Below, in pieces: positions 34,465-59,138 of a stretch of 64,000 nt of DNA (its first letter is position 1; every line of letters begins with the position of its first letter). The position numbers and the translations under genes are program-made. Source of the stretch: Candidatus Heimdallarchaeota archaeon (GTDB lineage Archaea; Asgardarchaeota; Heimdallarchaeia; Hodarchaeales; Hodarchaeaceae); assembly GCA_020353515.1 (NCBI GenBank), contig CP070695.1:3806277-3870276 (forward strand), written 5' to 3'. The notes under the pieces are model-generated. The model ran no database searches. It had not been told where the DNA came from and saw only the letters and a list, made by a program, of their open reading frames with translations.

Positions 34465-35331
34465 CTAGAGGTAATTTTTGACTGCTTCAGGGATTTCCCA
34501 GGGCGTCTCGGTGACTTTAGCACCGACTGCCTCTAAAGCGTCAATTTTTCCTTGAGCAGTCCCGACATTTCCAGAGATGATGGCGCCAGCGTGACCCATA
34601 CGTTTTCCTTCAGGTGCACTCTTACCTGCTATGTAAGCGACAACAGGTTTGTCAACCTTTTGATCTTTGATATACTGTGCCACTTTCTCTTCGTCATCAC
34701 CACCGATTTCCCCAATTAATACGATTACTCGTGTCCCAAGATCCTTAACATAATAATCAAAAGCTTCAGTTAATGTTTTTCCTCGAACTGGATCTCCACC
34801 AATTCCAATATATGCGGAAACTCCAACATCGGCATTACCAAGAGCTTTTGTGATTTCATATGACAAAGTACCACTTTTTGCGATAACAGCTACATCTCCA
34901 AAATGAGCCATATCACCAGGCATGATACCTAATTTAATTTTATCTGGGATTAACATTCCTGGAGTATTCGGGCCAATTAGGTTTAATTTTCTTGTCTTCG
35001 CAATCTCCACAAGACGAACCATATCAAAAACAGGGACTCCCTCAGTAATGATACATGTCATATTGACTCCTGCATCTAGACTTTCCATAACAGCGCCATA
35101 GGTGAAACGAGCTGGAACAAAAATGATGCTTGTATCCACTTCCTGTTCGTCGACTGCTTCTTGGACAGTATTGTACACAGGAACTCCAAGTACTTCTTGC
35201 CCACCCTTTTTAGGAGTTACTCCTGCAACAACGTTGGTCCCATATTCAAGCATCAATTGGGAATGGAACCTTCCTTGATTACCAGTAATGCCTTGAACAA
35301 CAACTTTCGAATCTTCACTAATGTACATCAT
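34465..35331 (-). CDS. sucD: Succinyl-CoA synthetase alpha subunit
   Basis: [45 protein letters not shown] (phospho-His). Confidence 0.95.
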
Positions 35332-35340
35332 ATCACCTTC

Positions 35341-36477
35341 TTATGTCATAACCTCTTTAAGCTTAGCAACGGCATCCATCATATCTTGATAGGCATTAAC
35401 CCCAGCATTATTGAGTATGGCGATACCTTCAGCCTCTCGTGTTCCAGTTAATCGAATTACCATAGGTGGAGCATCTGGGAACTCTTCCATGGTCTGTAAG
35501 ATAGCCTCTGCCACAACATCACACCGTGTAATGCCACCATATATGTTAATTAAGACAGCTCTTGGATTCATCGTATAGATAAGTTTAAGGGCTTCATATA
35601 CACGTTCCTTGCTGGCTCCTCCACCAACATCTAGGAAATTCATTCCTGCCAAACCATGTTGAGCTAGAACGTCAAGTAATGCCATCGTTAGCCCTGCTCC
35701 ATTTGCTAAAATCCCAATTTCGCCGTCGAGTTCGACAAAAGAAAATCCCACTCTTTGGGCTGTTTTTTCTAACTCCGTAAGCTTATGTTTTCGCAATTCC
35801 ACTATTAGCTCTTGACGAAACGCAGCGTTGTCATCTAGAGTCATTTTTCCATCAACAGCGACCACTCCTGAAGGAGTGAGTACCAAGGGATTGATTTCAA
35901 CCAGCTGGGCTTCTCTCTCGATTGTAATTTGCCATAATTTCAGGAAAAGGTCTGTGGCGGAATCAAGAAATGCACCTGAAAAACCTAATCTTTCAGCAAC
36001 ACTTTTAGCTACTTCTTTGCCTAATCCTTTAGCTATAGATATATTTTCTTTGATTATTGCCTCTGGGCGAGTAGCAGCAACCTCCTCAATGTCAATTCCC
36101 CCTTCTGCACTCGCAATAAGGACAAAACGCCGCCCAGATGAATCTAGTGCAATGGAACAATAATATTCATGTTTAATATCAGCCAAGCCTTCTATAAGGA
36201 TCGCTTCGACTCCATATTCACCAACTTTCCTGCTGAAAAACTCTTCACACATAGCAAGAGCTTCATCTCTTGTTTGAGCAATTTTGATGAGTCCCCTCTT
36301 CTTTCGGCTTCCAACAGCTATTTGACTTTTTACTATGGCAGGAAAGGCAAATTGATCGATTTTTTCCTTAATATTCTCCCCTTTTGTGATTACAAGACGA
36401 TCAGCAAGGGGTATATCAAACTCATTAAAAATTTCTTTACTTTCATATTCGAGAAGACGAATTGTGTAAACCTCCAA
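35341..36477 (-). CDS. sucC: Succinyl-CoA synthetase beta subunit (true start possibly ATT at 36462)
   Basis: RLLEYESK, SAEGGIDIEEVA, VEINPL, DDNAAFR, NGAGLTM, NFLDVGGG, NIYGGITRCD. Confidence 0.93.
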   Translation of the reverse strand: MEVYTIRLLEYESKEIFNEFDIPLADRLVITKGENIKEKIDQFAFPAIVKSQIAVGSRKKRGLIKIAQTRDEALAMCEEFFSRKVGEYGVEAILIEGLADIKHEYYCSIALDSSGRRFVLIASAEGGIDIEEVAATRPEAIIKENISIAKGLGKEVAKSVAERLGFSGAFLDSATDLFLKLWQITIEREAQLVEINPLVLTPSGVVAVDGKMTLDDNAAFRQELIVELRKHKLTELEKTAQRVGFSFVELDGEIGILANGAGLTMALLDVLAQHGLAGMNFLDVGGGASKERVYEALKLIYTMNPRAVLINIYGGITRCDVVAEAILQTMEEFPDAPPMVIRLTGTREAEGIAILNNAGVNAYQDMMDAVAKLKEVMT

Positions 36478-36549
36478 ATAAATTGTAATTTAAAAATAAA
36501 AGGGTTGATAGGGAATTTTTCGCACTCTAATTTCCTATTTTGTGCTTAA

Positions 36550-37155
36550 TTAAAAGGTAATACCTAAAAATTCACCTATTTTACCTAATTTTCCTTGAGC
36601 TTTTAGAGCTACATCTTTAAACAGACTCTCACCGTTAGAATCGATTCCTACGATCAAAGGTCCGAATTTATCTACTTCTAACACCCAAAGACATTCCGGA
36701 GTACCTAAATCTAACCAATGAACCTCTTTAACACGTTTTATCCCTTTTGCAGCAACTACTGCGGCACCACCAACGAAGGCGGTATATATTGCTTTATATT
36801 CCTTCATAGCTTTCGCTGTTCTATCTCCCATGCCACCCTTACCAATAACAACATTAACATTAAATGTTTTAATGAATTCATCTTCAAAAAGATCCATACG
36901 TGTTGAGGTTGTAGGTCCTGCGGCAACAATTTCCCATTCATCCCCTACTTGTCTAACTACTGGTCCACAATGATAAACAGCTAATCCCTCGAAATCAATA
37001 GGCATTTTTTCACCTTTTCCTGCAAGATGCAATGCTCTCTCATGAGCTTCATCTCTAGCAGTGAAAATTGTTCCCGATACGTATATCACATCGCCTATCT
37101 TAACTTTTTGTACATCTTCTTTTGAAATTGGAGTTGTAAAATGAAATTCCGCCAT
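36550..37155 (-). CDS. Class I (Fe-S) fumarate hydratase, beta (C-terminal) subunit
   Basis: TARDEAH, YHCGP, AGPTTSTRM, IGKGGM; TCA context favours fumarase over tartrate dehydratase. Confidence 0.88.
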   Translation of the reverse strand: MAEFHFTTPISKEDVQKVKIGDVIYVSGTIFTARDEAHERALHLAGKGEKMPIDFEGLAVYHCGPVVRQVGDEWEIVAAGPTTSTRMDLFEDEFIKTFNVNVVIGKGGMGDRTAKAMKEYKAIYTAFVGGAAVVAAKGIKRVKEVHWLDLGTPECLWVLEVDKFGPLIVGIDSNGESLFKDVALKAQGKLGKIGEFLGITF

Positions 37156-37157
37156 AT

Positions 37158-38054
37158 TTATTCCTCCTTATGTGTGAGAAACTCAACTCGTTTGTCAGGA
37201 TAAATACGAGCTGTTGCTCTTCTTGCAGCCCAGCACTGAATAGCTACTGCAGCAGGTAATGAGGCTGGATGACGATGAGCATATTCGATTTTTACGTCTA
37301 AAGCTGTAGAGAAATCTCCACCTAATCCCATAGATCCAATGCCTGTCATATTTATTGCTTTTAGTAGATCCTCTTCAAGTTTAGCTATCTCTGGATCAGA
37401 ATGTCTTTCTCCAAGTGGGCGTAGTAATTGTTTTTTCCCGAGTTTTAGTGCAATGTCTGCACCACCACCAATACCAACACCCACGACCACAGGTGGACAA
37501 GGTTGGCCCCCTGCATTCATAATGGTGTCAATAACGAATTTTTTTACCCCATTAATACCTTGGCCTGGTTTAAGCATTCCCAAGGCACACATATTCTCTG
37601 ATCCACCACCCTTGGGAAAAGCAGTAATTTCCAAGTAATCTGCTCCAGGAATGAAATCATAATTTATGAATGGAATATGATTTCCCGTATTATCTCCTGA
37701 ATTACCGCCAACAATAGGATTAACAGCGTTTGGTCTTAAAGGAACCTCCTTGGTTGCTCGAGCTGAAGCTTTTCTAAGCATTCCTTCAATTCCAGCAACT
37801 TTGGGAAAATTCTCACCAATATTTACATAATAGATATGGATCCCTGTATCTTGACACATTGGGGTAGATGTCTCATCTGCAATGGTAAAGTTATCCACAA
37901 TTGTTTTTAACGCAGCTTTACTTGTTGGTTGTGTTTCCTGTTTATACATGGTTTTTAATCCTTCGGAAACATCATTAGGTAGCTGTGTCGCAGCAAACCT
38001 GAGTAATTTTACAGCTGTATCTTCAATTATTGTGTTATCAAACGTTTCTGCCAT
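37158..38054 (-). CDS. Class I (Fe-S) fumarate hydratase, alpha (N-terminal) subunit
   Basis: PMCQDTG, PLRPN, PKGGGSEN, GGQPCPP, GVGIGG, HPASLP, QCWAAR. Confidence 0.88.
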   Translation of the reverse strand: MAETFDNTIIEDTAVKLLRFAATQLPNDVSEGLKTMYKQETQPTSKAALKTIVDNFTIADETSTPMCQDTGIHIYYVNIGENFPKVAGIEGMLRKASARATKEVPLRPNAVNPIVGGNSGDNTGNHIPFINYDFIPGADYLEITAFPKGGGSENMCALGMLKPGQGINGVKKFVIDTIMNAGGQPCPPVVVGVGIGGGADIALKLGKKQLLRPLGERHSDPEIAKLEEDLLKAINMTGIGSMGLGGDFSTALDVKIEYAHRHPASLPAAVAIQCWAARRATARIYPDKRVEFLTHKEE

Positions 38055-38188
38055 ACTTATCACAATTCTCAAGTAATTAGTATATGAAAAACTGATAAAA
38101 TGATTTTTTTTGTCATAATAAAAATTCTATCACTTATAACTTATGAATACAATGTAGCCTTTAGAATCAACTAATTTTAATTTGAAAT

Positions 38189-38227
38189 AAAAGGGAGAGT
38201 GGGATGATGGCAACCAATTTTGCCATC
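38189..38227 (-). terminator. Candidate terminator downstream of sdhB (hairpin followed by pyrimidine tract)
   Basis: Inverted repeat GATGGCAA (38206-38213)/TTGCCATC (38220-38227), followed on the minus strand by CTCTCCCTTTT. Confidence 0.45.
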
Positions 38228-38246
38228 CTTGAAGCTAGGAACTAGG

Positions 38247-38978
38247 CTAACGTGACCAAAATTTAAGTGCCTGAATCGCTGCTTGCCGTTTCAAAGCCTG
38301 AATAGCCTCTGTCGGATTAAGCTCCTTTGGACAAGCTTCCACACAATTAAAGGCGGTATGACAACGGAAAACACCATCTTCAGCAGAGACACGTTTAACA
38401 CGATCTTTAGTGTTTTCATCTCTAGTATCCTTTGCAAAACGGAATGCTTTTAAAAGTGCTCCAGGGCCTAAATAATTCTTGTCTGTCCATACTGATACGC
38501 ATGAACTATGGCAACAGCCGCATAGAATGCACTTAGTCGCTTCTTCGATAATTTTGAAGTCTTCGGGACTTTGAATAAGCTCAGTTTCTGGATCTTTGCT
38601 ATGATCGCGCATTAAGAAAGGATCGATAGCAAGCAGTTTCTCATAAAACGGATCCATATCAACTACCAAGTCTTTAATCACAGGGAAGAAGGGGATGGGT
38701 TCTAGTTTAATCTCATCTTTCTTAAGTTGAAGAACTAAGGTCTCGCATGCTAATTGATACTTTTTATTGACTAGAACGGCACAGGAGCCACACACACCAG
38801 CCCGACAGTTATATCTCATGGCTATCGAGCCATCTTGTTTAGCAATTAGTTCTTGTATTGCGATTAAAACAGTTGTCCCTTTGTCACAGTCTAATTCAAA
38901 AGTATCCCAATAAGGTTCAATATCCTTTTTTGGATTGAAGCGTTTGATCTTGAAAATTATTTTTTTAGTTTCACTCAT
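38247..38978 (-). CDS. sdhB: Succinate dehydrogenase/fumarate reductase iron-sulfur subunit
   Basis: CRAGVCGSC [2Fe-2S], CILCGCCHSSC, CHTAFNCVEACP; ATG 38978 after GAGGTGA. Confidence 0.93.
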   Translation of the reverse strand: MSETKKIIFKIKRFNPKKDIEPYWDTFELDCDKGTTVLIAIQELIAKQDGSIAMRYNCRAGVCGSCAVLVNKKYQLACETLVLQLKKDEIKLEPIPFFPVIKDLVVDMDPFYEKLLAIDPFLMRDHSKDPETELIQSPEDFKIIEEATKCILCGCCHSSCVSVWTDKNYLGPGALLKAFRFAKDTRDENTKDRVKRVSAEDGVFRCHTAFNCVEACPKELNPTEAIQALKRQAAIQALKFWSR

Positions 38979-38988
38979 TGTTTTCACC

Positions 38989-40710
38989 TCAGTACTTTCG
39001 TTCCTCCGGTTGCCACTTCGTAATAATGACATCTAGATAGCTCAGTTTGGCTTCACCATCCACATAATTTACCAACGTGTGCTTCAGGAAGTTATCATCG
39101 TCTCTTCCCATGTTATCTAGTCTCCAGTGGCTACCACGGCATTCCTTTCGCTCAAGAGCACCTAAACAAATCGCTTCGGAAAGTTCCAACATTCCCTCGA
39201 GAGCCAAGACCCACTCTAACTCCCTATTGTACAATCTGTCCTTGGATTTAAGGTAAACACCTTCTTTGAATCGTTTCTTAAGTTCCCTGATCTTATTGAG
39301 CGCTTCCGCTAAAGGAGCTTCTTCTCGATAAACAAACACCTTCAACTTCATTGTATCACGCATTTCTTGCATGATCTGGAATGGATCGTTCTTACCTTCA
39401 CCACTGAACCAGAAATCATGTTTTTCTTGTTCCTTAACGAATTCTTCGAAGATTGCATACTTTGCATCAGGAGATGGAGACACTCCTTCTACAAATTTTG
39501 CTGCCTCTAAACCAGATACTTTCCCGAAAACAGCACAACCTAATAATGAATTACCACCCAGACGATTTGCACCATGCACTGAAATGCATGCGCCTTCACC
39601 GCAGGCATAGAAACCTTCCACTTCTTTACTTGCACAGTTCCCATCAACATGAATACCTCCCATTGCGTAATGAAAACCTGGTTGAACTGGGATAGGATCT
39701 TTAATCATGTCCTGGCCACTGAACCGTAAAGCTAGCTCTCTGATTTGGGGAAGACGTTCTAGGATCTGTTCAGCTGGAAGATGTGTTAAGTCAAGATGAA
39801 CATATCCATTCTCTTTTGTCCCATACCCTCTGCCTTCAAGTACTTCTTGGTAAATTGACCTCGATACAATATCTCTCGGAGCAAGCTCCATCTTTTCTGG
39901 AGCATATTTTTCCATGAAACGCTCACCTTTGTTATTTCGTAAGTAACCACCTTCTCCTCGTGCTGCTTCTGAAATTAGAACGTTATTCCCATATAAAGTG
40001 GTTGGGTGAAACTGAATGAACTCCATATCTTTCAAAGCAACGCCTCCCCAATATGCGACAGCCATACCAAAACCTGTACAGTTTAAGGCATTTGATGTAG
40101 CCCCATAGATCTGCCCAGCTCCCCCAATGGCAAATATTGTTGCATCACACTCCCACATCTCAAGTTCACCACTTTTGAAATTGTATACGATAAGTCCTTT
40201 CACTTTTTGGTCTCTTACTACGAGTCGAACAACAAGACGATCTTCGTAAACAGGTACACCTAATTTTACTGATCTTTCCCAGGCAACATGGAGAATTGAA
40301 TGCCCAGTACGATCTGCTGCAAAGCAGGTACGTGGATATCCTGCACCACCAAAAGGCCTTTGACCAATCCTACCATCTTCAAATCTTGAAAAAGGGCAGC
40401 CCCAGTGTTCTAACTCATAAATAGTTTCCTTGGCTAGTTCAATCATCTTGATTACTGCTGGTTGGTCAGCTAAATAATCAGAACCTTTTACAGTGTCAAA
40501 AGCATGCCTTTCAACCGAATCATCTTTAGACTCAGGATGATTTCCGAGGGGAGCATTAATTCCACCTTGAGCTGCAACAGAGTGACTTCTTACAGGCTGA
40601 CAAATTGAAATGACAGCTACATCTGCCCCATTTTCTCTAGCGGCTACTGCTGCACGCATACCAGCTAAGCCAGATCCTACAACTAAGATACTATGTCTCT
40701 TTATTTGCAT
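38989..40710 (-). CDS. sdhA: Succinate dehydrogenase/fumarate reductase flavoprotein subunit
   Basis: [19 protein letters not shown] (covalent FAD His), [35 protein letters not shown] end. Confidence 0.95.
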
Positions 40711-40714
40711 GACT

Positions 40715-41227
40715 CTAACCTCCAAGGGTTCCTCCTATTTCGACAATTCCAGGAAGAATAGCTATTAGGAATAAGCCTAAAGCCCATGTAATAACTCCAA
40801 GAACTAGAAATATCCAAAATATCATCTTTTGATGACGGATTCCTATACCGAGGTCAAATAAAACCACTCTTACTCCATTAGCACCATGATATATTCCTAA
40901 AGCCATTACTCCAGCATCAATGAAGAATCCAATAGACAACATGTGATTTAACAATTCAACTCCAGTGTCAAAGAGATTTTGATTCATTGCATGAACTACT
41001 GTATTATATAATTCTCCCGCTTGAAATCCTAGGAACGGATCGAGTAACATCAAACCGATGATTGACATATGAATAAAAACGTAGATTAGAAGGCATAATC
41101 CAGTTATCCTCTGGAAAAGCCATGCATACATACCCATTCCACGAGAAAATGGATTGAACCAAGAGAGGAAATTAGATGCTTTACTGCTTGTTTCAATTTG
41201 TGAATCTTCAACTGTGACTTTTGTCAT
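40715..41227 (-). CDS. sdhC: Succinate dehydrogenase cytochrome b subunit (SdhC-like)
   Basis: [25 protein letters not shown]; 3 TM. Confidence 0.8.
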
Positions 41228-41237
41228 TTACTTCACC

Positions 41238-41663
41238 TTATGCAACCATCACCGTATAATTTAGGAAGAACGCATAAACTACCAATAAAAAGCCAATAAG
41301 TAGGAGTACTATTGCGAGTAACCTTTTACTCACTCTTCCAGGGGCTAAATCAAGTGTGACCGTTCTAAATCCGTTTAACATGTGAAAAACAACTGTTAAA
41401 ACGAATAATACCGATATCCAGAAGTAAAAAGGAAAATTAATCATCTTCCATCGAACAGCTTGGAATGATGCAATACCATATGTTTCGACTATATCTAGTG
41501 GAAGATGAGCACTTAAATAGTGGTTTACCAGCATATGAAATAGGATCAGGAAAAATAACATTACTCCTGTTATTCGCTGAAGAACCCACCAAAGAGCACT
41601 CTTCTTACTATGTTTTGGCAAAAATTTTGCAAATTTGCTTTCAGAAAAAAGTTCAGTTCCCAT
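41238..41663 (-). CDS. sdhD: Succinate dehydrogenase membrane anchor subunit (SdhD-like)
   Basis: WWVLQRITG, FHM, FHMLNGFRTV; 3 TM. Confidence 0.75.
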   Translation of the reverse strand: MGTELFSESKFAKFLPKHSKKSALWWVLQRITGVMLFFLILFHMLVNHYLSAHLPLDIVETYGIASFQAVRWKMINFPFYFWISVLFVLTVVFHMLNGFRTVTLDLAPGRVSKRLLAIVLLLIGFLLVVYAFFLNYTVMVA

Positions 41664-41941
41664 ATTTTGCTCACATCACACATAAAACTATTAATTTCTA
41701 CGATTATCGTAAGCTAATAACTCTGTGGAATATATGGACATGTCGAGAATAGTATCTTAAATTATTTGTTGGAAAAAAGTGGCTATTTTTCAAACACAAA
41801 GTAAAATTCATAATAATTCAGGCTGAGTATTCCTGAGGGAATAATAACTAAAAACAAAAAAATGGATTGAAATAGAGAAATAGTAACTCTATTAACCTAA
41901 CTGGGACTACTAATCTTAATTCGTAGAATTCAGGTGATTTT

Positions 41942-42271: not shown

Positions 42272-42332
42272 TCCAAAACAATTGAAATTTCACTACTAGG
42301 AAAAAAAAGAAATTGTGAGTAAGAATCTCATT

Positions 42333-43682
42333 TTACCGATTCTTCACATCAATATAATTTCCTGCATCTGGGAGTATGTAGACAAGGGGATCTTGATTCT
42401 TTTCTTCTCTGTACTTCTGAATCCATGCAAGAAGGCTTTCCTGAACATCACCTGTTCGTGGAACATATTTTATCTGGAAAATCTCTTCGAGCTCGTCTTT
42501 ATCCATCTCAGTAATCATGTGACAAGTACATCGTTGTAAGATGCGTATTAAATCGACTACTTTCTGATTACCAATCTTAAAATTATCAATACTACATTTA
42601 GTTTTAATCACATGATCCATCGCTTCATCAAGTTCCATACCTTTAATTTCTTCCATCGTATCTTTGTAATTCTGAGACCCATGACCTAGGGGGCAGTGAG
42701 CAAGTAACAACACGTCCCCACCTTCTTTTACTGCATTCCAACCAGCATGAAATCCTTTTCCACCTTGATACAAATTGATACTCAATGCTCCAGTAGATAC
42801 AATGACAAGGTCAGCACCTTCATCCACCTCTACAATCCTTAGTGGCTTTAAAGTTTCTAGAACTAATTCATGTAAAGAGTTGATATCTCCTGCATTCAGA
42901 ATAACTATGTCGTCTCCTTCCATCACCGCATCAATATCAAAGACAGGTACCATCTTTTTAGTTTTTTTTGCCATCTCTATCATATCTTGGATGACAGGAT
43001 TCCCTTCGGTATTTCCGAGTCTACATGCAGGTTTAAACCCGTGATCCTTATCAAACATTTGAGGATGATTCCTGGCAATGGTTTCTTTTCCTGCACATCC
43101 TGGAAAGAAAGATTTTACGGTTCCTGCTACTCCAGCGAAATAGTGGTATTCACTATCAGAGACTGCAATGACTAAACCAGATTCCAACACATCAATGTCT
43201 ACTTCAATAGGTGTACCCAGCGATGATGTTCCAATATTCTTACAGTTTTCCGCTTGCTTGTGGATTAAGACATATTCTTTCCACGCATTATAAATTTCAG
43301 AACCAAGGATTTTATTTTCAAGTAAATCATCACTTGGTGGACTATGGGATCCACTTGCAATCATAATACGAATGTCATCTTTATCTACTCCATAATCGAA
43401 CAGTTTTTCTAAAAGCATTGGAAGTAAAATCTTCGTGTGCTTATTTGGCCTTGTTGCATCATCCACAAGAATCATTATTTTCGGTCTTTGCCGATTTTTC
43501 ACCATTTCCTCTAAAGGGGGTGAATCAACTGGATTTTTGATGATTTCATCAAAACGAGCTTGGAGATCTGTGAAAGTTCGTTTTGCTTTCTCGGGCTCCA
43601 GAACTCGTACATTCAGATCAGCTGGGATAAAATGGGAAATCATTTCATCCCCGTATGCTAACGCTATATCCTTGTAAGTCAT
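42333..43682 (-). CDS. larA: LarA-family nickel-pincer-dependent 2-hydroxyacid racemase
   Basis: VDDATRP, ASGSH, EYHYFAGVAGTVKSFFPG, IARNH correspond to conserved LarA D/R, H, H/K, H residues; ATG 43682 preferred. Confidence 0.85.
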   Translation of the reverse strand: MTYKDIALAYGDEMISHFIPADLNVRVLEPEKAKRTFTDLQARFDEIIKNPVDSPPLEEMVKNRQRPKIMILVDDATRPNKHTKILLPMLLEKLFDYGVDKDDIRIMIASGSHSPPSDDLLENKILGSEIYNAWKEYVLIHKQAENCKNIGTSSLGTPIEVDIDVLESGLVIAVSDSEYHYFAGVAGTVKSFFPGCAGKETIARNHPQMFDKDHGFKPACRLGNTEGNPVIQDMIEMAKKTKKMVPVFDIDAVMEGDDIVILNAGDINSLHELVLETLKPLRIVEVDEGADLVIVSTGALSINLYQGGKGFHAGWNAVKEGGDVLLLAHCPLGHGSQNYKDTMEEIKGMELDEAMDHVIKTKCSIDNFKIGNQKVVDLIRILQRCTCHMITEMDKDELEEIFQIKYVPRTGDVQESLLAWIQKYREEKNQDPLVYILPDAGNYIDVKNR

Positions 43683-43806
43683 AAGTATCATCCCTACTAA
43701 ATCCGTAATTTCCATTATTTTATAATAATTTTTCCTCCAATGCTTTATGAGAAGCAAGAATAAGCAGGTTTCACTTAATATTCTATTTCTAACCACAATA
43801 AAACGT

Positions 43807-45274: not shown

Positions 45275-45277
45275 AAA

Positions 45278-47116: not shown

Positions 47117-47117
47117 G

Positions 47118-48486: not shown

Positions 48487-50406
48487 TTATATATAACTTA
48501 ATTTTCCACCGGCAAGGAGTATTTTGCGATCACGCTCTGAAAGATCATATGAAGTTTCTATGTCAAATCTTTGGGTAACATCTCGGATGATAATGGTTTG
48601 ATTTTCTTCTAAGGCTTTACGCACTCCTTTAATCTCTAAAATATCATTTTCTTTAATTTTGTCATAATCCGCTGTGTTTGCGAAAGATAAAGGAAGAATT
48701 CCGAAGTTAATTAAGTTGTCCCGATGAATACGGGCAAAGGACTTCGTAAGGACGGTCTTTATTCCTAGATACATTGGAGCAAGTGCTGCATGTTCCCTGC
48801 TTGAACCTTGACCGTAATTCTCACCGCCAATTATGATTCCCCCGCCTTCCTCTTTACTTTCAAGAGCTCGCTCGGGGAATGTTGGATCGACCTGCTCGAA
48901 CACATGCTTACTAATTTCAGGAAGATTAGACCTTAGAGGTAGAATCTTTGCTCCTGCAGGCATGATATGATCCGTAGTGACGTTATCTTCTGTTTTAATG
49001 AGCACTTTGAATTGAAAATCGTCAGGAAGCGCTTGGAATTCTGGTAATGGGGCAATATTGGGGCCTCGGATTATCTCGACCTCTTCAGGTTTGTCAGATG
49101 GTTTAAGAATCATTGAGTCATCGATTTCAATTGATTTGGGAATTTCAATTTTTGGAAAGTCTCCTAATTTTCGGGGATCTGTGAACTCTCCAAAAACAGC
49201 GGCAGCCACAGCAACTTCTGGACTGACCAAATATGCATTTGCACTTTTTGTTCCACTTCTACCATAAAAATTCCTGTTGAAAGTACGGGCAATTGTTGCA
49301 TCTGTCTTAGGAGCAAAACCCATGCCAATGCATGGACCACAAGCAGTCTCAAGAATCCGAGCTCCTGCGGTAATCATATCAGCCAAACTACCATCTTTTG
49401 ATAATTGCATTAACACTTGACGTGATCCAGGAGAAATACCTAAAACTGTGTCTGGATGGATTTTCCGTCCTTTTAGAAGAGCTGCAGCAGTTAACATGTC
49501 TTTTAATGAACTATTAGTGCAAGATCCGATTGCTACTTGGTCTACCTTCATTCCTTCAACTTCAGATAGAGGAATAACGTCACCTGGAGAATGGGGTTTA
49601 GCAACAAGGGGTTCCAGTTCAGAAAGATTGATCTCTATTATCTCATCAAAATCATCATCGCTTCCAGCAGGAATTTCCATCCATTGATCTTCCCTTTCTT
49701 GCCATTTAAGAAACTCACGCGTGATTTCATCAGAGGGGAAAATTGATGTTGTTGCTCCAGTTTCAGCCCCCATGTTTGTAATAGTAGCTCGCTCGGGAAC
49801 TGATAGTGTTTTCACTCCTGAACCAAAGTATTCTAGGATTTTACCAACACCACCTTTTACTGATATCCTCCTGAGAACTTCTAAGATTACATCTTTGGCA
49901 GTAACATAATCTGGTAAAGATCCAGTTAGTTTGACTCCTACCATCTTCGGTGTTTTGAGATAAAATGGACCCGCACCCATTGCTACAGCAACATCAAGAC
50001 CACCAGCACCGATTGCAATTGCACCCATTCCACCAGCTGTTGGAGTATGCGAATCAGAACCAATCATTGTCTTTCCTGGTCTCGCAAAACGCTCGAGAAA
50101 AACTTGATGGCAGATACCATTACCAGGTCTAGAAAACATAATGCCATATTTTGCTGCGACTGATTGTAGATACCGATGGTCATCAGGGTTTTTAAAATCT
50201 GTTTGTAACGTATTATGATCTACAATTGACACAGATAATTCTGTCTTGACCTTATCAAGACCCATTGCTTCAAATTGAAGGTATGCCATCGTTCCAGTGG
50301 CATCTTGAGTCAGAGTATGATCAATACGAATACCAATTTCTTCTCCGATCTCAAATTTTCCCTCAACAAGATGATCTTCTAATATTTTCTTTGCTATGGA
50401 TACCAT
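48487..50406 (-). CDS. acn: Aconitate hydratase (short Aquifex-type)
   Basis: TLTQDATGTMA, DHN, GNGICHQ, GSDSHT, IGSCTNSS, CGPCIG, FNRNF, TTDHI, NYGQGSSREHA. Confidence 0.92.
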   Translation of the reverse strand: MVSIAKKILEDHLVEGKFEIGEEIGIRIDHTLTQDATGTMAYLQFEAMGLDKVKTELSVSIVDHNTLQTDFKNPDDHRYLQSVAAKYGIMFSRPGNGICHQVFLERFARPGKTMIGSDSHTPTAGGMGAIAIGAGGLDVAVAMGAGPFYLKTPKMVGVKLTGSLPDYVTAKDVILEVLRRISVKGGVGKILEYFGSGVKTLSVPERATITNMGAETGATTSIFPSDEITREFLKWQEREDQWMEIPAGSDDDFDEIIEINLSELEPLVAKPHSPGDVIPLSEVEGMKVDQVAIGSCTNSSLKDMLTAAALLKGRKIHPDTVLGISPGSRQVLMQLSKDGSLADMITAGARILETACGPCIGMGFAPKTDATIARTFNRNFYGRSGTKSANAYLVSPEVAVAAAVFGEFTDPRKLGDFPKIEIPKSIEIDDSMILKPSDKPEEVEIIRGPNIAPLPEFQALPDDFQFKVLIKTEDNVTTDHIMPAGAKILPLRSNLPEISKHVFEQVDPTFPERALESKEEGGGIIIGGENYGQGSSREHAALAPMYLGIKTVLTKSFARIHRDNLINFGILPLSFANTADYDKIKENDILEIKGVRKALEENQTIIIRDVTQRFDIETSYDLSERDRKILLAGGKLSYI

Positions 50407-50558
50407 TCACCAAACATCCTATTCTTAAAAGGTATTAAGCTGTTTTTTCAGTATTTAGCTTGATTAAAAAAAGGCTTTTACAAATTTATAAATTCTTTTT
50501 ACTAAATGATTTCCATGAACGAATTATTAGCTCTCCTCTTTCGCGTAGTTTCAATAAT

Positions 50559-53678
<3,120 letters not shown>

Positions 53679-53827
53679 TCATCAACTTTTCTCGAATATC
53701 TCATTCCCCTTTTAAAGGTTTGAATTATTATAACTTGATATATCTCTAGTATCTACCTTTTTCTGCTAAACGTTTAAAAAAAAAATCTTGAAAAATGTCC
53801 ACAATCAAGAAAGGTGGATTAAATACA

Positions 53828-54295
53828 ATGAGCAAACAGGAAAAAGTGGAATTCTACAAAGAACAAATCAACATAGAGAACACAATAGTTGAAAAGGCTG
53901 AAAAAGCAGTCCAAGGGATGGAAAATATTCTGATTCGGGAACTAATTCTTGGGATCGCTTTGGATTCAAAAAAGCATGCAGGCATGTTAAATGCATTAGT
54001 GAGTATATATACCAAACCAACTCCCTCTGTTGCCGAAGAATTCGGAGAAGATCTGAAAAAAGCTATTGCAGAGCACATTGAGCTAGAACAGCAAGCAATT
54101 GATGCTTATCAGGAACAATTAGACAACACCGATAATGAAAGTGAAAAACTCATCATCAAGGCCATCCTCAATGATGAAAAAAAGCACCACACGCTCCTCC
54201 AAACAATCCAAAAAATGATTGTTGAAAAATTAACCCTATCAGAAAATGAGCTTTGGGAGATGGTAGAAGAAAGCTTTTTTGATTTCGGGGAATAG
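53828..54295 (+). CDS. Ferritin-like (rubrerythrin-type four-helix) protein
   Basis: DSKKH and EKKHH diiron-type motifs, HIELE. Confidence 0.65.
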   Translation: MSKQEKVEFYKEQINIENTIVEKAEKAVQGMENILIRELILGIALDSKKHAGMLNALVSIYTKPTPSVAEEFGEDLKKAIAEHIELEQQAIDAYQEQLDNTDNESEKLIIKAILNDEKKHHTLLQTIQKMIVEKLTLSENELWEMVEESFFDFGE

Positions 54296-54421
54296 AAGCT
54301 TATTATACGGATTTTGGAGACCCTTTTTAGGGTTCTGATCTCCCTTTTTTTGTACAGTTATCTTAGGAATAGAAGAAAAGAAAACTCCCAATCCTTTTAG
54401 TTAAATTTGAAAAATCTGTAT

Positions 54422-56812
54422 TTAGGCAGCAGCCTTTGCTTCTTTGTGAGCAACCTCATGATTTTTACGAGCAATTTTACTCATCTCTGTGACGACATCA
54501 GCAAATTTCTTGCCCTCAGCAGCTGACATCCATTCAATGATAAAGCGCTCATCAGCGATACCTTGTTTCTTCATCCAGCGACGAATCTTTCTCTCACGCT
54601 TCAATGCCCAATCGTTTCCAGAGATATAATGACAGTCTTGAGGATGACACCCAGTCAGCATTACAGCACCTGCACCTCGTTCAAAAGCCCGCTTGATGAA
54701 GTCAACATCGACACGTCCAGAACACATAGTCCTAACTATACGGGAATTGGTTGGATACTGAATTCGGCTTGTTCCAGCAAGATCAGCGCCTCCATACGAG
54801 CACCAATTGCAAGCGAAGATCATCACCTTCTCTGAAGCGTTATCTCTTAGGGCAATGTCTACTTGTCGAAGGATCATCGCGTCAGTAAAGTTAGTCATGG
54901 TAATGCAGTCTTTTGGACAATCTGCGGCACAGGTTCCGCATCCTTTACACAAGATGGGGTTGACATGAGCTGGAGTCTTTTTCTTCGTATCCACACTAAT
55001 AGCATTGTATGGGCAACGTTTTGCACATGTTCCACAGGAATTGCACAGTTCGGTATCTACATAGGCAAACAGGGGTTCAACACTAAACTCTCCTTTAGTA
55101 AGTAATCGTGTAACTCTTCCTGCTGAAGCACTAGCCTGAGTAACACACTCACGAATGTCTTTTGGAGCTTCTGCCCCGCCAGCAATGAATACACCATCAG
55201 TTGGAGTATCAACGGGTTTTAATTTGGGGTGAGCTTCAATATAGAACCCTTTAGGATCTCTTGAGACAGGAAATGGTATGGGATATGCAGAACCTTCCGC
55301 CCCAACAGAAAGTACAACTAGATCGAATTCTTTAGTAAGAAGTTTTCCTGACCGAGTATCTTCTACAGATACAAAGAGATTATTATCTCCAGGATTCTCT
55401 TCTATCAAACTTGGACGTCCACGGATATAATGAACTCCTTCCTCTCTAGAACGAGTGTAAAGCTCCTCAAAACCTTTACCAAAGGCTCTAATGTCCATAT
55501 AGAAAACAGAAATATCTACTTCAGGCCAGTGTTCTTTGATGAGTAGACTATCTTTTATAACTTCCATGCAGCAGAAATTACTACAGTATGGGTTGAATCG
55601 AACGTCTCGTGATCCGACACAATTGATAAATGCGACACTTTTAGGAGGTTTAAGGTCACTGGGCCTAACAAGTTCTCCCGAGGTAGGACCAGCAGCATTA
55701 ATCAAACGTTCAAATTCGAAAGTTGTTACAACATTAGGATACTGTCCCCATCCGTATTCAGGGATCTTAGAGGCATCAAAAATCTCAAAACCCGTTGCTA
55801 CAATTATTGAACCAACTTTATAGGTATATGTCTTTTCAGTATCCTCGTAATTAATAGCTTCTTTATCACATGTGCCAGCACACTTTCCACATGCTAAAGG
55901 GGAAAGTCCAAGGCAGTTATCGGTATCTATCAAGTAAGCTGCTGGGACAGACTGTGGATATGGAATATATATTGCTTTTCTCCAACCTAGATTACCAGAA
56001 TACTCGTCAATGACGTTTACAGGACAGATATCTATGCAATCATTACATGCTGTACAAAGATCCTCGTCAACATAGCGTGCTTGCTTCTTAATTGTAACCT
56101 CAAAATTCCCCACATATCCTTCAATATTTGTTACTTCTGCACTTGCAATTAAATCGATATTCTGGTGATTACCCACATCAGCCATTTTTGGACCAAGGAT
56201 ACAAATAGAACAATCCATTGTAGGAAATGTTTTGTCAATTAAAGCCATTTTTCCGCCAATCGTCGGACTTTTCTCAACCATGACGACTTGATAATCATCA
56301 GCTAAGTCTAACGCTGCCTGAATCCCAGCTACTCCTCCACCGATGATCAATACCCTTTTCTCAACAGGAACTACGATTTCGTCAACAGCCTCGAGTAACT
56401 CGGCCTTGGCTATTGCCATTTCAGTTAATTCTTTTGCTTTTAAGGTCGCTTCTTCTTTCTCATGAAGATGTACCCAAGAGCAATGTTCTCTGATATTAGC
56501 AACCTCGACTACTTCTGGGTTCATTCCAACACGTTTTAACAGGTTTTTCCATGTTGGAAGATGTAATCTTGGGGAACAGGCTGATACAACTATTTTTTCT
56601 ATTCCTTGTTCTTTAATTGCTTCCTCAATTTCAACTTGTCCTGGATCTGAACAAGTATAGGTGTTTACCTGAACGAGTTTTACTCCTGGTAACTGCTCTG
56701 CTTCTTTAGCTATTTCATCGATATCAACGGTACCACCAATATTCTTCCCACATTTACAGAGAAAAACACCAATTTTAGATTCTTCAGTTGGTTGATCTAC
56801 ACTTTCAGTCAT
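54422..56812 (-). CDS. hdrA: Heterodisulfide reductase subunit A fused to MvhD (HdrA-MvhD)
   Basis: CKCGKNI/YTCS/ACSP/NIREHCSWVH N-terminal cluster; IGGGVAG FAD; KTFPTMDCSIC; CVGSRD, CSNFCC; four ferredoxin-type motifs; C-terminal MvhD FACNWCSY..MCSGRV..GCHPQDCHYISGN. Confidence 0.93.
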   Translation of the reverse strand: MTESVDQPTEESKIGVFLCKCGKNIGGTVDIDEIAKEAEQLPGVKLVQVNTYTCSDPGQVEIEEAIKEQGIEKIVVSACSPRLHLPTWKNLLKRVGMNPEVVEVANIREHCSWVHLHEKEEATLKAKELTEMAIAKAELLEAVDEIVVPVEKRVLIIGGGVAGIQAALDLADDYQVVMVEKSPTIGGKMALIDKTFPTMDCSICILGPKMADVGNHQNIDLIASAEVTNIEGYVGNFEVTIKKQARYVDEDLCTACNDCIDICPVNVIDEYSGNLGWRKAIYIPYPQSVPAAYLIDTDNCLGLSPLACGKCAGTCDKEAINYEDTEKTYTYKVGSIIVATGFEIFDASKIPEYGWGQYPNVVTTFEFERLINAAGPTSGELVRPSDLKPPKSVAFINCVGSRDVRFNPYCSNFCCMEVIKDSLLIKEHWPEVDISVFYMDIRAFGKGFEELYTRSREEGVHYIRGRPSLIEENPGDNNLFVSVEDTRSGKLLTKEFDLVVLSVGAEGSAYPIPFPVSRDPKGFYIEAHPKLKPVDTPTDGVFIAGGAEAPKDIRECVTQASASAGRVTRLLTKGEFSVEPLFAYVDTELCNSCGTCAKRCPYNAISVDTKKKTPAHVNPILCKGCGTCAADCPKDCITMTNFTDAMILRQVDIALRDNASEKVMIFACNWCSYGGADLAGTSRIQYPTNSRIVRTMCSGRVDVDFIKRAFERGAGAVMLTGCHPQDCHYISGNDWALKRERKIRRWMKKQGIADERFIIEWMSAAEGKKFADVVTEMSKIARKNHEVAHKEAKAAA

Positions 56813-56830
56813 TGTTATCACTTAATATCA

Positions 56831-57700
56831 TTATTTCTTCTTTTGAGCCACATCTCGAAGATGTTGAACCTTCTGACTAAAACCCTCCCTTGGCGCATCA
56901 ACAAACTCCCCGCAGATTATCTTCCCCTGTTTGAAGTCAAATGTAGCTTCATGAGGTGGCCAATCAGTTTTTATCCTCACTTGATTTTTTATCCAGTCTA
57001 ACATCTGGACAGCGTCACCGAGCTTGTTCTTGCGACCGTATTGGGTGAAACATGGAGCAAGCACTTCGATGAAGCTAAATCCTGGATTATCAAATGATTT
57101 TAAAATGCTGTTTCTTAATCTGATAGTGTCATATCCAGGCCAACGGGCAACATAACTTGCCCCTGAAGCTGCTGCTAATGAAACTAAATTGAATGGAGGT
57201 TCAATATTCCCATAAGGAGTGGTTGTTGTGAAGTCACCTATCTGAGTGGTCGGAGCACATTGACCTCCAGTCATCCCATAGACATTGTTATTTATACACA
57301 GAACGGTTATTTCTACATTTCTTCTACAGGCATGGATGAAATGATTCCCACCAATGGCAAAAAGATCTCCGTCTCCTGAAAGAACAACTACTTCAAGATT
57401 AGGATTTGCCAGTTTCAACCCTGTAGCAAAGGGAATAGCTCTCCCATGCGTTGTGTGAAAAGCAGGAGAATTAAAACATCCACTAGATCGGCCAGTGCAA
57501 CCAATACCTGAAACCACTGCATAATCTTTAGATGTGAGACCTCTTTCTGCAAAACAGCTAGTTATAGATGTTATTGCTGATCCGATCAGACAACCAGGAC
57601 AAAAGATAAATCGATGTAAGTTTAACCTTTCATGTAAGGGATGATCCTCAGGGATCTCGTCAGAACTTTTTGGAGCTGGAATTTTATCTGTTGTTGTCAT
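56831..57700 (-). CDS. korB: 2-oxoacid:ferredoxin oxidoreductase beta subunit (2-oxoglutarate-type)
   Basis: FCPGC, VSGIGC, HTTHGRA, SGDGD (TPP), NNNVYGMTGGQ. Confidence 0.85.
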   Translation of the reverse strand: MTTTDKIPAPKSSDEIPEDHPLHERLNLHRFIFCPGCLIGSAITSITSCFAERGLTSKDYAVVSGIGCTGRSSGCFNSPAFHTTHGRAIPFATGLKLANPNLEVVVLSGDGDLFAIGGNHFIHACRRNVEITVLCINNNVYGMTGGQCAPTTQIGDFTTTTPYGNIEPPFNLVSLAAASGASYVARWPGYDTIRLRNSILKSFDNPGFSFIEVLAPCFTQYGRKNKLGDAVQMLDWIKNQVRIKTDWPPHEATFDFKQGKIICGEFVDAPREGFSQKVQHLRDVAQKKK

Positions 57701-57702
57701 AT

Positions 57703-58857
57703 TTAAACCTCCTTTAGCAACTCCTCATAAATAAACCGTGGACTGAAGGGAATGGTTGTTGGTACTAAACTACCAGTTACTTCAAATCCAAGATGTCGGA
57801 ATCGTTCAACTTCTCGGATCACTTGACCATAATTCATTTCGCTAACAATCACTTTTTTCAAGCCAAGCTGACCTAATTTTTCCATGAGTTTTTCGGGAAA
57901 AGGCCACAACGTTCTTAATCTCACTAAACCGACCTTATGGCCTTCTTTGCGTGCACGTTCAACTGCCTCGGGAACGCCTCTTGAATTAATACCATAAGAT
58001 AAAATAACCGTCTCGGCATCATCTAAATGTTGTTCCTCCCATGGGACGTATTCATTAATCGCAACGCTCGCGTTTCTAATCTTATCACAAAGACGTGTAA
58101 TAAGCTTTATCGCTCTCTCTGGAGTCATATCTGGACTTCCAGTGTCATCATGAGTCAACCCTGTTACATAAAAGTTATATTCTGTTCCAGCTGTAGCCAT
58201 ACCTGGAACCAAGTCCTCATCGAGAACTTCAAATGGTTTGTATTCCTCTGGAGGAACTTGGGGAGGTTTTCGGTTGATAACTTCAAAATTTGAGTGATAC
58301 CTTACAGGTTCCATCATTTGACCTACTATGCCATCTGATGCAATAATAACTGGTGTTCGATACTTCTCAGCTAAATTAAAACCATATATAGAGAAATCGT
58401 AACATTCTTGAACTGTACCTGGAGCAAGAACGATCATCTCATAATCCCCATGTGAAAGGTATCGTGTTTGCATAACATCAGATTGTGAGGCTTTAGTAGG
58501 TTGTCCAGTGCTAGGTCCCCCTCGCATCACAGTGATAACTACCATAGGTGCTTCCAACATGAATCCTAAACCAATAGTTTCCGCCATTAAGGACAATCCA
58601 GGACCAGATGTCGCAGTCATTGCTTTAACACCAGCGTAGGAAGCTCCTACTACCGAAACAATCGAAGCTAGTTCATCTTCCATTTGGATGAAGGTACCAC
58701 CAACTTGAGGAAGACGTCTTGACATATAATGGGCAATTTCTGAGGATGGAGTAATGGGATACCCTCCAAAGTAGCGGCAGCCAACCGCAATAGCTCCTTC
58801 AGCACTCGCATAATTTCCAGTAGTAAGTACTAGCTTTCCATTATTATCACTACTCAT
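57703..58857 (-). CDS. korA: 2-oxoacid:ferredoxin oxidoreductase alpha subunit (no fused gamma domain)
   Basis: GYPITPSSE, QMEDE, TATSGPG, RGGPSTG, HGDY, TGLTHD, EMNYGQ. Confidence 0.88.
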   Translation of the reverse strand: MSSDNNGKLVLTTGNYASAEGAIAVGCRYFGGYPITPSSEIAHYMSRRLPQVGGTFIQMEDELASIVSVVGASYAGVKAMTATSGPGLSLMAETIGLGFMLEAPMVVITVMRGGPSTGQPTKASQSDVMQTRYLSHGDYEMIVLAPGTVQECYDFSIYGFNLAEKYRTPVIIASDGIVGQMMEPVRYHSNFEVINRKPPQVPPEEYKPFEVLDEDLVPGMATAGTEYNFYVTGLTHDDTGSPDMTPERAIKLITRLCDKIRNASVAINEYVPWEEQHLDDAETVILSYGINSRGVPEAVERARKEGHKVGLVRLRTLWPFPEKLMEKLGQLGLKKVIVSEMNYGQVIREVERFRHLGFEVTGSLVPTTIPFSPRFIYEELLKEV

Positions 58858-59138
58858 GAACTCTCCTCCTGTAGTAATTGTATCTCAGTTACAAATATTG
58901 AGACAGAGGGGCAGATCCGCTCACACTGTTGACACCCTACACATTCATCTGGCTTAACAGCAATCGCAGGGTGTAACATTCTTGAGTTGTATGCCTCCAT
59001 ATCGATCTCCAATACGTCTGTTGGACAGAACTCCACACATAATTCACATCCATCACACTGTTCAGGTAGTATCGTCACGACATACTCCTTATCAGTAGTT
59101 GGAGGAGGTAATATGGGCTTCCGTTGGCTTCTTAACAT
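58854..59138 (-). CDS. korD: 2x[4Fe-4S] ferredoxin, OFOR delta subunit
   Basis: CDGCELCVEFCP and CVGCQQCERICP; stop overlaps korA start. Confidence 0.85.
   Translation of the reverse strand: MLRSQRKPILPPPTTDKEYVVTILPEQCDGCELCVEFCPTDVLEIDMEAYNSRMLHPAIAVKPDECVGCQQCERICPSVSIFVTEIQLLQEESS

Follow-up and report, generated by a model that had tools for sequence, protein, structure and literature searches.

A conserved supercluster of tricarboxylic acid cycle genes in a Hodarchaeales archaeon, with ATP-citrate lyase in the apparent position of citrate synthase

A stretch of 64,000 nucleotides from a Candidatus Heimdallarchaeota archaeon of the order Hodarchaeales (GenBank assembly GCA_020353515.1, contig CP070695.1), hereafter the window, was found to carry a supercluster of tricarboxylic acid (TCA) cycle genes in which ATP-citrate lyase (ACL) appears to replace citrate synthase (CS). 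The window corresponds to G000:C1:3806277-3870276, where G000 denotes its own genome (other G numbers denote the related genomes compared), a single-contig assembly of 4.94 Mb with a G+C content of 35.8%, an estimated completeness of 96% and a CheckM-type contamination estimate of 7.4%. A first-pass annotation had read the cluster as a reverse TCA (rTCA) cycle; of that reading the signature enzymes, their clustering and the caveat that direction is not legible in sequence all stand, and autotrophic CO2 assimilation is not supported. The cluster probably, though by no means certainly, serves an amphibolic, bidirectional organic-acid network of an anaerobic heterotroph rather than an autotrophic cycle.

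Gene identities were assigned by Pfam and NCBIfam profile scans of the open reading frames (ORFs) of the window. All TCA genes assigned by the first-pass annotation within ~25 kb (sucCD, class I fumarase, sdh/frd DCAB, aclBA, icd, aconitase, and korDAB) are intact. Eight of them form a minus-strand run from 41663 down to 34465 in the order sdhC-sdhD-sdhA-sdhB-fumA-fumB-sucC-sucD. These encode complex II, with its anchors (sdhC, 41238-41663; sdhD, 40715-41227; both Pfam Sdh_cyt), sdhA (38989-40725; TIGR01812, 703.5 bits, cut-off 567) and sdhB (38247-39032; NF004616, 285 bits, cut-off 228), a two-subunit class I Fe-S fumarate hydratase (fumA, 37158-38072, NF004885, 340.6 bits, cut-off 276, Pfam Fumerase; fumB, 36550-37155, TIGR00723, 227 bits, cut-off 145, Pfam Fumerase_C), and an ADP-forming succinyl-CoA synthetase (SCS; sucC, 35341-36477, NF001913, 370 bits, cut-off 370; sucD, 34465-35331, NF004230, 379 bits, cut-off 336; Pfam CoA_binding, Ligase_CoA, and ATP-grasp_2 in the pair). 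The plus strand carries aclB (43985-45274), aclA (45278-47116) and icd (47203-48402; isocitrate dehydrogenase, IDH; Pfam Iso_dh), convergent with a minus-strand acn (48487-50406) for a 639-aa aconitate hydratase (NF005558, 973.8 bits, cut-off 612). A tightly packed minus-strand operon follows from 59138 down to 54422, consisting of korD (58854-59138), korA (57703-58857), korB (56831-57700) and an hdrA2-mvhD fusion gene (54422-56821). The cluster extends over ~40 kb, beyond the ~25 kb first reported, and runs past the window end. About 4.5 kb past that end lie the beta and alpha genes of a second, two-subunit 2-oxoacid:ferredoxin oxidoreductase (OFOR2, gamma-alpha fused; G000:3874839-3877755), followed by a second aconitase of 897 aa and AcnA type (G000:3878316-3881009).

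As judged from the enzyme types encoded, the cycle set appears reversible throughout (ACL, aconitase, IDH, KorGDAB, SCS, complex II, and class I fumarase), and we infer from sequence all directions of flux given below as well as any physical coupling of Kor to HdrA2. The remainder of the genome was searched for enzymes that bear on these directions, with absences resting on Pfam-model searches of this single assembly. Neither type of phosphoenolpyruvate (PEP) carboxylase (PEPC; PF00311, PF14010), pyruvate carboxylase (PYC; PF02436) nor GTP-dependent PEP carboxykinase (PEPCK; PF00821) had a match in G000. The PEPCK_ATP model (PF01293) reached 31-33 bits only. Two proteins of 591 and 660 aa (L060:1723-3498, L061:1615-3597) show a remote likeness to ATP-dependent PEPCK (45-49 bits, cut-off 369), and G000 has no other PEPCK-like sequences. 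Two malic enzymes are the sole C3/C4 link found in G000. The CdhC component of the Wood-Ljungdahl enzyme CODH/ACS was not found in G000, nor were COX1 and cytochrome bd, and only one molybdopterin oxidoreductase is encoded. Six OFOR systems are present, of which two resemble pyruvate:ferredoxin oxidoreductase (POR); both are four-subunit OFORs and score best as PorA_Arch, at 393 and 460 bits (cut-off 550). PEP synthase was also detected (1210 bits), along with paralogs resembling ADP-forming acetyl-CoA synthetase (ACD), and three [NiFe] hydrogenase large subunits adjoin HdrA paralogs. No Ldh_1_N protein was detected in G000. An Ldh_2 protein (399 bits) is the candidate for malate dehydrogenase (MDH); its gene lies 2.4 kb from the prpBCD genes, upstream of prpB, and this proximity is kept in G018, G016, and G020. 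Among the companion enzymes proposed for checking by the first-pass annotation, hydrogenases, POR-like OFORs, and PEP synthase were thus recovered, MDH only as this Ldh_2-type candidate, and enzymes of C3 carboxylation were not found.

An amphibolic network is the most likely use of the cluster because no O2 oxidase or C3-to-C4 carboxylase was found, because genes for peptide, sugar, and organic-acid catabolism are present, and because the hydrogenases include H2-evolving types. The catabolic context comprises a glycoside hydrolase family 2 (GH2) gene within the cluster, CoA-transferases and a 2-hydroxyacid dehydrogenase upstream, and the ACD-like proteins, malic enzymes, PEP synthase, and POR-like OFORs. 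In such a network, aclBA-icd and acn would interconvert 2-oxoglutarate, citrate, and acetyl-CoA plus oxaloacetate. The favoured main flow would be the reductive carboxylation of amino-acid-derived 2-oxoglutarate followed by cleavage, giving acetyl-CoA and the only evident source of oxaloacetate. KorGDAB and SucCD would oxidise 2-oxoglutarate to succinate with a yield of ATP, and complex II with fumarase would interconvert fumarate and succinate, also serving the methylcitrate cycle. Of the two outcomes offered in the first-pass annotation, the conversion of citrate to acetyl-CoA therefore fits better than reductive CO2 assimilation.

Several points weigh against this reading. The assembly on which the absences rest is 96% complete, and everything that an rTCA cycle needs apart from a carboxylase is present (three [NiFe] hydrogenases beside HdrA paralogs, POR-like enzymes, and PEP synthase). 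Carboxylation of pyruvate by malic enzyme is possible in principle. The lack of CS is not absolute, since PrpC enzymes often show CS side activity. Finally, the related genome G015, which has the same cluster, has a cytochrome oxidase and no CS, and this fits an oxidative cycle, with ACL forming citrate, better than cleavage.

The alternative put forward in the first-pass annotation is autotrophy by the Arnon-Buchanan cycle, in which Mvh-type hydrogenases would oxidise H2, HdrA-type bifurcation would reduce ferredoxin for KorGDAB and POR, ACL would cleave citrate, and CO2 would be fixed into biomass. ACL, 2-oxoglutarate:ferredoxin oxidoreductase (OGOR), and fumarate reductase (FRD) are the signature enzymes of the rTCA cycle. 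All three types are present in the window (ACL, an OGOR-like KorDAB, and a complex II of the succinate dehydrogenase (SDH)/FRD family), clustered with class I fumarase, SCS, IDH, and aconitase. As in Chlorobium, Aquificales, and Desulfobacter hydrogenophilus, the ferredoxin-dependent OGOR-like enzyme and the rest of this set are accompanied by POR-like enzymes and PEP synthase, here encoded elsewhere in the genome. The two POR-like OFORs, the hydrogenase subunits beside HdrA paralogs, the HdrA2-MvhD fusion in the kor operon, an Arg in IDH where NAD-specific enzymes have Asp (suggesting NADPH), and the lack of a free CS all agree with autotrophy, and Bulzu et al. (bioRxiv 10.1101/385732) used the same marker genes to propose an rTCA cycle in Lokiarchaeia. 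However, the capacity for reductive CO2 assimilation is not borne out by the gene inventory: with no PEPC, no PYC, and no convincing PEPCK found, an autotrophic cycle could be replenished from C3 units only via malic enzyme. The Arnon-Buchanan organisms differ further in that no canonical MDH was found here, only the Ldh_2 protein that travels with prpBCD, and no energy metabolism to drive the cycle was identified (COX1 and cytochrome bd were searched, and one molybdopterin enzyme was found), so that a respiratory acceptor system supplying ATP is not evident. The genome is heterotroph-like, its cycle genes are clustered and have a sugar hydrolase embedded among them, the same cluster occurs in the COX-bearing G015, and ACL with an acn-aclBA-icd operon is found in a Lokiarchaeon as well. 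Autotrophy is accordingly judged quite improbable, and the amphibolic network is preferred.

The identity of the ACL is clear from its domains and motifs. AclB combines an ATP-grasp with a citrate-binding region (Pfam Citrate_synth_N, PF24948; Citrate_bind, PF16114), and AclA combines a CoA-binding/ligase part with a CS-like citryl-CoA lyase part (Pfam CoA_binding, PF02629; Ligase_CoA, PF00549; Citrate_synt, PF00285). AclA has both the GHAGA motif with the phospho-histidine His275 and the NVDG motif. Among chains in the PDB it scores 790 bits against ACLY-B of Methanosaeta concilii and 763 bits against human ACLY, and only 430 bits against 6hxj_B, labelled 'ATP-citrate lyase alpha-subunit', which we take to be from Chlorobium limicola. 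In domain order, in the GHAGA and NVDG motifs, and in full-length matches of 763-790 bits it thus resembles eukaryotic ACLY and the ACLY-A/B of Methanosaeta/Methanothrix (PDB 6hxh, 6hxi, 6znw), unlike the 6hxj chain with which it would be compared in an Arnon-Buchanan cycle; it differs in being split into two genes. In published trees, eukaryotic ACLY is not sister to Asgard ACL (PMC11976288; bioRxiv 10.1101/2022.10.25.513756), and ACL in Asgard archaea has been reported before (bioRxiv 10.1101/385732; bioRxiv 10.1101/2022.10.25.513756; PMC11976288). Fused ACL-like proteins of ~1020-1040 aa, 53-55% identical to AclA, also occur among its homologs on metagenomic contigs (e.g., P0035, P0037, P0041-P0043). 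The gaps in aclB-aclA-icd are 3 bp and 86 bp, and the three genes are probably one operon.

No CS and no MDH were detected among the scanned ORFs of the window (a few small ORFs were left unscanned), as the first-pass annotation had maintained. Genome-wide CS, Ldh_1_N, and Ldh_2 searches agree: they placed no MDH-family match inside the window, and the sole CS-family match there is the CS-like domain of AclA. A class survey of 83 genomes (82 and the window's own) gives this absence a wider setting; since these genomes are related and incomplete, its counts characterise the sample and should not be read as statistical tests. ACL was found in 19 of the 21 other genomes of the window's family and in none of the 61 outside it. 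Strong CS matches were obtained in sister families (2/2 genomes of f2, 11/12 of f4, 3/3 of f6, and half of f7), with none in f3, and were missing in 8/21 genomes of the window's family, including G015 (96% complete). The CS frames that do occur in this family are of two lengths. Seven are of ~380 aa, and each of the five fetched lies inside a prpB-prpC-prpD operon, while those of ~620 aa have the length of a fusion of CS with phosphotransacylase (CS-PTAC). From these distributions, ACL would occupy the position of CS in the window's family, the sister families having CS.

The first-pass annotation had also left room for a CS encoded elsewhere. Homologs do exist in G000, none of them as a free-standing CS gene of ordinary context. 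One is the PrpC of a prpB-prpC-prpD methylcitrate operon, which is accompanied by the Ldh_2-family dehydrogenase, 1.5 kb upstream of prpB (G000:C1:506376-512431; L033:6377-12432). The second is a 614-aa CS-PduL/PTAC fusion in a microcompartment (BMC) operon (G000:C1:3994313-4001278; L034:314-7279) together with two BMC-H genes, BMC-T, EutN, an aldehyde dehydrogenase, and a Nuo51/RnfC-like protein, an arrangement that matches archaeal microcompartments described recently (bioRxiv 10.1101/2025.11.08.687404). The third is a 713-aa fusion of an SCS-alpha-like and a citryl-CoA lyase (CCL)-like part, which follows a 428-aa SucC-like protein in a second SCS-like/CCL-like pair (G000:4060075-4063499); the N-terminal part of the fusion scores higher against true SCS (192 bits) than against citryl-CoA synthetase (CCS; 100 bits). 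This pair belongs to a second citrate-lyase-like locus (G000:C1:4058522-4063499; L032:6523-11500) with a convergent CitF-like citrate CoA-transferase (498 bits, cut-off 501) and adjoining iorAB. BMC genes were found in 8/21 genomes of the family, and their presence does not follow that of ACL. As a general account, a citrate shuttle between a microcompartment CS and a cytosolic ACL was rejected: BMC genes are missing from G015 and G018, both with the full cluster, and in G002 and G006, which have BMC genes, ACL was not found.

The main rival to the amphibolic reading is a complete oxidative cycle like that of Desulfobacter postgatei. In it, ACL would run in reverse as an ATP-conserving CS, ferredoxin-dependent KorGDAB and complex II would feed an anaerobic electron transport (aerobic in relatives), and a CoA-transferase may activate acetate. 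The distribution just described, with ACL and no free CS in the window's family and CS without ACL in its sisters, is in line with this, as are the homolog of acyl-CoA:acetate CoA-transferase and the MenA gene just upstream of the cluster. The prpBCD methylcitrate operon needs the oxidation of succinate to oxaloacetate. A precedent for a modified oxidative TCA cycle in D. postgatei is listed in PMC9768450 (Moller et al., 1987, Arch Microbiol 148:202), and published reconstructions of Hodarchaeales infer a complete oxidative TCA cycle with an electron-transport chain of complexes I, II, and often IV (PMC10307638; bioRxiv 10.1101/2024.07.04.601786).

The complex II of the window fits such a chain as well as fumarate reduction. 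Four transmembrane histidines are present in its anchors (SdhC H43 and H94; SdhD H53 and H114) and menA (24495-25499, plus strand; TIGR00751, 102.5 bits, cut-off 102.15) lies 9 kb upstream, and because of these it is consistent with a two-haem, menaquinone-type enzyme of the succinate:quinone/quinol:fumarate family, for which either direction would be possible.

A further genomic point for the oxidative cycle comes from G015, which has the same cluster, a cytochrome oxidase, and no strong CS match. COX1 scored above its cut-off in 9/21 genomes of the family (11/21 at E <= 0.001), including G015 and excluding G000 and G018, so the presence of a terminal oxidase differs between near relatives. 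The COX1 block of G015 is ~8.6 kb long (G015:C1:44903-53519; L086:6904-15520) and lies 17 kb from the supercluster. Of its eight ORFs, only one has any counterpart in G000, a partial match of 53% identity. The proximity does not reflect an ancestral linkage, as the block is absent from G000 and its flanks map to G000 at 1.62-1.63 Mb.

Against the oxidative cycle, G000 itself has neither COX nor cytochrome bd and a single molybdopterin oxidoreductase, leaving no evident acceptor for succinate oxidation. The step of MDH or malate:quinone oxidoreductase (MQO) is uncertain, and the CoA-transferase scores best as a butyryl-CoA:acetate type, under all cut-offs. An acn-aclBA-icd operon is also found in a Lokiarchaeon, a member of a class in which no respiratory-chain component beyond the ATPase was found by Bulzu et al. 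(bioRxiv 10.1101/385732). As far as the listing in PMC9768450 goes, D. postgatei uses ACL for CS, a ferredoxin-dependent OGOR, and a menaquinone-linked membrane complex II, to which the ACL, the predicted OGOR, and the complex II of the window would correspond, with a CoA-transferase homolog nearby in the window. It differs in that no terminal reductase was identified here (COX1 and cytochrome bd were searched, sulfate reduction was not). The oxidative cycle is thus regarded as unlikely, albeit less so than autotrophy, and the amphibolic network is retained.

The icd product is the only IDH candidate of G000; its sole paralog, for which homoisocitrate or isopropylmalate dehydrogenase is the best-scoring assignment, is part of a leu/lys-type cluster. 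The best PDB matches of the icd product are NAD-dependent IDHs, placing it in the NAD-IDH/IDH3-like subfamily, and it has the Ser132-x-Asn134 isocitrate signature. It is nevertheless predicted to use NADP(H), because the Asp that determines NAD use in the HGSAPD motif gives way to Arg or Lys in Hodarchaeales orthologs (HGSAL[RK]M). In the window the motif reads HGSALRM (Lys in G005), and the protein has a 44-residue N-terminal extension. Divergent from aclB lies a gene for a LarA-family nickel-pincer 2-hydroxyacid racemase homolog (42333-43796, minus strand; Pfam Lar_N, LarA_C), with malate racemase LarAH6 as its best NCBIfam match (259 bits, under the cut-off of 500). It also adjoins aclB in G018, G015, G009, and G005 (79-88% identity). 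The possibility that icd encodes a D-malate/tartrate or homoisocitrate dehydrogenase partnering LarA is unsupported, given the Ser-x-Asn signature and the best scores against IDHs.

For the 2-oxoglutarate step, all four Kor subunits score best on OGOR/Oor families, with KorA alone above a cut-off, that of a generic family (NF006412, 475 bits, cut-off 411); for KorB and KorD the best NCBIfam match is likewise the OGOR/Oor family. Solved relatives of KorA in the PDB include two OGORs, and KorDAB is predicted to act on 2-oxoglutarate. The gamma subunit is encoded at an unlinked position (G000:1570843-1571403). Its identity is 59-66% with the gamma whose gene lies immediately upstream of korD in f14, and 75% with the one whose gene adjoins korD in G005. 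A role of HdrA2 as substitute for a missing gamma was rejected, the orphan gamma at 1.57 Mb being the ortholog of the in-operon gamma of other Asgard families. The gamma gene has been relocated, therefore the enzyme is a predicted OGOR with the normal four subunits, to which a flavoprotein is added, and not a gamma-less one.

The flavoprotein is a 799-aa HdrA2-MvhD fusion (NF040770, the Methanosarcina HdrA2 model, 1074 bits, cut-off 1100). Across 13 orthologs, its G161xG163xxG166 FAD motif and the Fe-S and MvhD [2Fe-2S] cysteines, in CNWCSY, MCSGR, and GCHxxDCHY, show no variation. Among the scanned ORFs of the window neither hdrB nor hdrC was detected, and none adjoins hdrA2; other kor-hdrA2 loci were examined only for hdrA2 and the four kor genes. 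The linkage of HdrA-MvhD to kor, pointed out in the first-pass annotation, is real and conserved across four Asgard families in three arrangements. The window's own family has korD-korA-korB-hdrA2, and f14 has korG-korD-korA-korB-hdrA2, with KorA, KorB, and HdrA2 72-78% identical and KorD ~57% identical to those of the window. In G114, a KorB-gamma fusion (504 aa; L070:4935-6449) directly precedes hdrA2, and in two closed genomes of f18 the order is hdrA2-korD-korA-korB-korG. In the sampled genomes of five other families, kor and hdrA2 are not adjacent. The HdrA2 gene of G009 (L080:4413-6332) encodes just 639 aa and its match stops at residue 584, the MvhD part being missing or split off.

Structure prediction of a KorD-HdrA2 complex gave 0.58, compared with 0.00 for the best control; contacts agreed between runs to 76% or more, and the pLDDT of the partner was 77 or higher. 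The mark applied was passed by 58 of 80 solved complexes and by 2 of 110 mismatched pairs. Passes at 0.60 or below comprise seven of the 80 solved complexes and both of the passing mismatches (a calibration that is approximate, as own alignments were used), so that low passes such as 0.58 are more often wrong than right unless the pairing is likely beforehand. Moreover, KorD is ferredoxin-like, and ferredoxins are natural binding partners of HdrA, hence the pass may mirror family likeness. The model lends weak support to a KorD-HdrA2 complex.

That KorGDAB and HdrA2-MvhD form a single flavin-based electron-bifurcating or confurcating 2-oxoglutarate oxidoreductase is a tentative proposal, somewhat doubtful as it stands. 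In one direction, F420H2, NAD(P)H, or H2 via Mvh would serve as mid-potential donor and drive the most difficult reduction of the cycle, from succinyl-CoA and CO2 to 2-oxoglutarate, with no need of free ferredoxin at low potential; in the other, electrons from 2-oxoglutarate would pass to carriers other than ferredoxin. The kor-hdrA2 genes could accordingly serve to deliver OGOR electrons to another carrier or act as a bifurcating device that powers reductive carboxylation. OFORs with an added flavoprotein subunit reportedly include the NADP-dependent KorABC of Azoarcus evansii and the phenylglyoxylate:NAD+ oxidoreductase PadEFGHI. The window resembles such OFORs, MvhADG-HdrABC, and the HdrA2B2C2 of Methanosarcina in that an OFOR core is co-encoded with an FAD/Fe-S protein that possibly passes electrons beyond free ferredoxin. 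It differs in that the partner is a full HdrA-MvhD fusion in an operon without HdrBC or hydrogenase. No description of a Kor-HdrA operon was found in the literature searched.

The clustering seen in the window is real and conserved. G018 and G015 share the full gene order, GH2 and rubrerythrin genes included, with 70-96% protein identity except in the anchors SdhC and SdhD (51-54%). In G005 the order is partly kept, the closed genome G009 has larA-aclBA-icd only, with kor-hdrA2 located elsewhere, and G003 keeps acn-aclBA-icd. An acn-aclB-aclA-icd operon, with acn first, is present in a Lokiarchaeon, and acn adjoins the aclBA-icd core in most loci compared. Because the whole order is found in G015 and G018 and the core alone further out, in other Hodarchaeales and the Lokiarchaeon, the supercluster is a family-level Hodarchaeales arrangement around a widely conserved citrate module, (acn)-aclBA-icd. 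The homologs closest to AclA, with 80-89% identity, carry Hodarchaeales, Hodarchaeota, or Heimdallarchaeota annotations, and orthologs of 75-80% identity occur also in Thor- and Lokiarchaeia. Given these homologs and the presence of RadA and Orc1/Cdc6 genes in the window, its Asgard origin, which the first-pass annotation had put forward as putative, stands.

A fortuitous juxtaposition, an assembly error, or the recent transfer of a bacterial island might be suspected from the G+C content of the cluster (0.36-0.42), slightly over the genome mean of 0.358, and from the contamination estimate of 7.4%. However, the same order recurs on independent contigs of G015, G018, and G005, the closest AclA homologs are all Asgard, and random placement would bring eight units within 24.7 kb of 4.94 Mb with a p of ~6e-16. 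Conserved synteny effectively refutes chance and mis-assembly, and this whole group of explanations is extremely improbable.

Some genes in and around the cluster lie outside the TCA cycle. A 1036-aa GH2 beta-galactosidase (50559-53669, minus strand; Pfam Glyco_hydro_2_C, Bgal_small_N, and others) is embedded in it, and this linkage is kept, without explanation, in G015 and G018, where the protein is 70-76% identical and in the same position. A rubrerythrin/ferritin-like gene (53795-54295, plus strand; Pfam Rubrerythrin, 33 bits) is convergent with hdrA2. Downstream of the window, OFOR2 and AcnA are preceded by genes for a peroxiredoxin fusion, a thioredoxin-reductase-like protein, and a pyridine-nucleotide disulfide oxidoreductase (G000:C1:3870415-3873942; L031:416-3943). 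Oxidative-stress genes at these two places bracket the O2-sensitive Fe-S enzymes of the cluster. Upstream lie an acyl-CoA:acetate CoA-transferase-GNAT gene (25508-27430, minus strand; best match butyryl-CoA:acetate CoA-transferase, 242 bits, under cut-off), a second CoA-transferase gene (31191-33074, minus strand; Pfam), and between them a gene for a YdiJ-like FAD oxidase (27712-30678, plus strand; D-2-hydroxyglutarate dehydrogenase YdiJ, 377 bits, under cut-off). In the product of the last, 988 aa in length, an FAD-linked oxidase is fused to a GlpC/HdrD-like module that has two CCG domains, and this protein could offer the oxidation of 2-hydroxyacids a high-potential outlet for electrons.

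Earlier publications have already described TCA genes and ACL from Asgard archaea. New in relation to the literature are the supercluster as a physical unit with a conserved core, the replacement of CS by ACL within a single family, the lack of detectable carboxylases and oxidases in G000, and the kor-hdrA2 linkage with a relocated gamma subunit. As G000 has the full cluster without an O2 oxidase or a C3 carboxylase having been found, labels such as 'aerobic TCA' or 'rTCA autotrophy' drawn from marker genes alone are unsafe. An OGOR genetically tied to HdrA2-MvhD in several Asgard lineages offers a testable candidate for the handling of low-potential electrons, and a Kor-HdrA2 complex together with ACL in place of CS would, if true, make up a variant of the cycle specific to Asgard archaea. 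Eukaryotes have some of their closest known archaeal relatives in the Hodarchaeales, whose central carbon metabolism is therefore relevant to how the host cell of eukaryogenesis is modelled.

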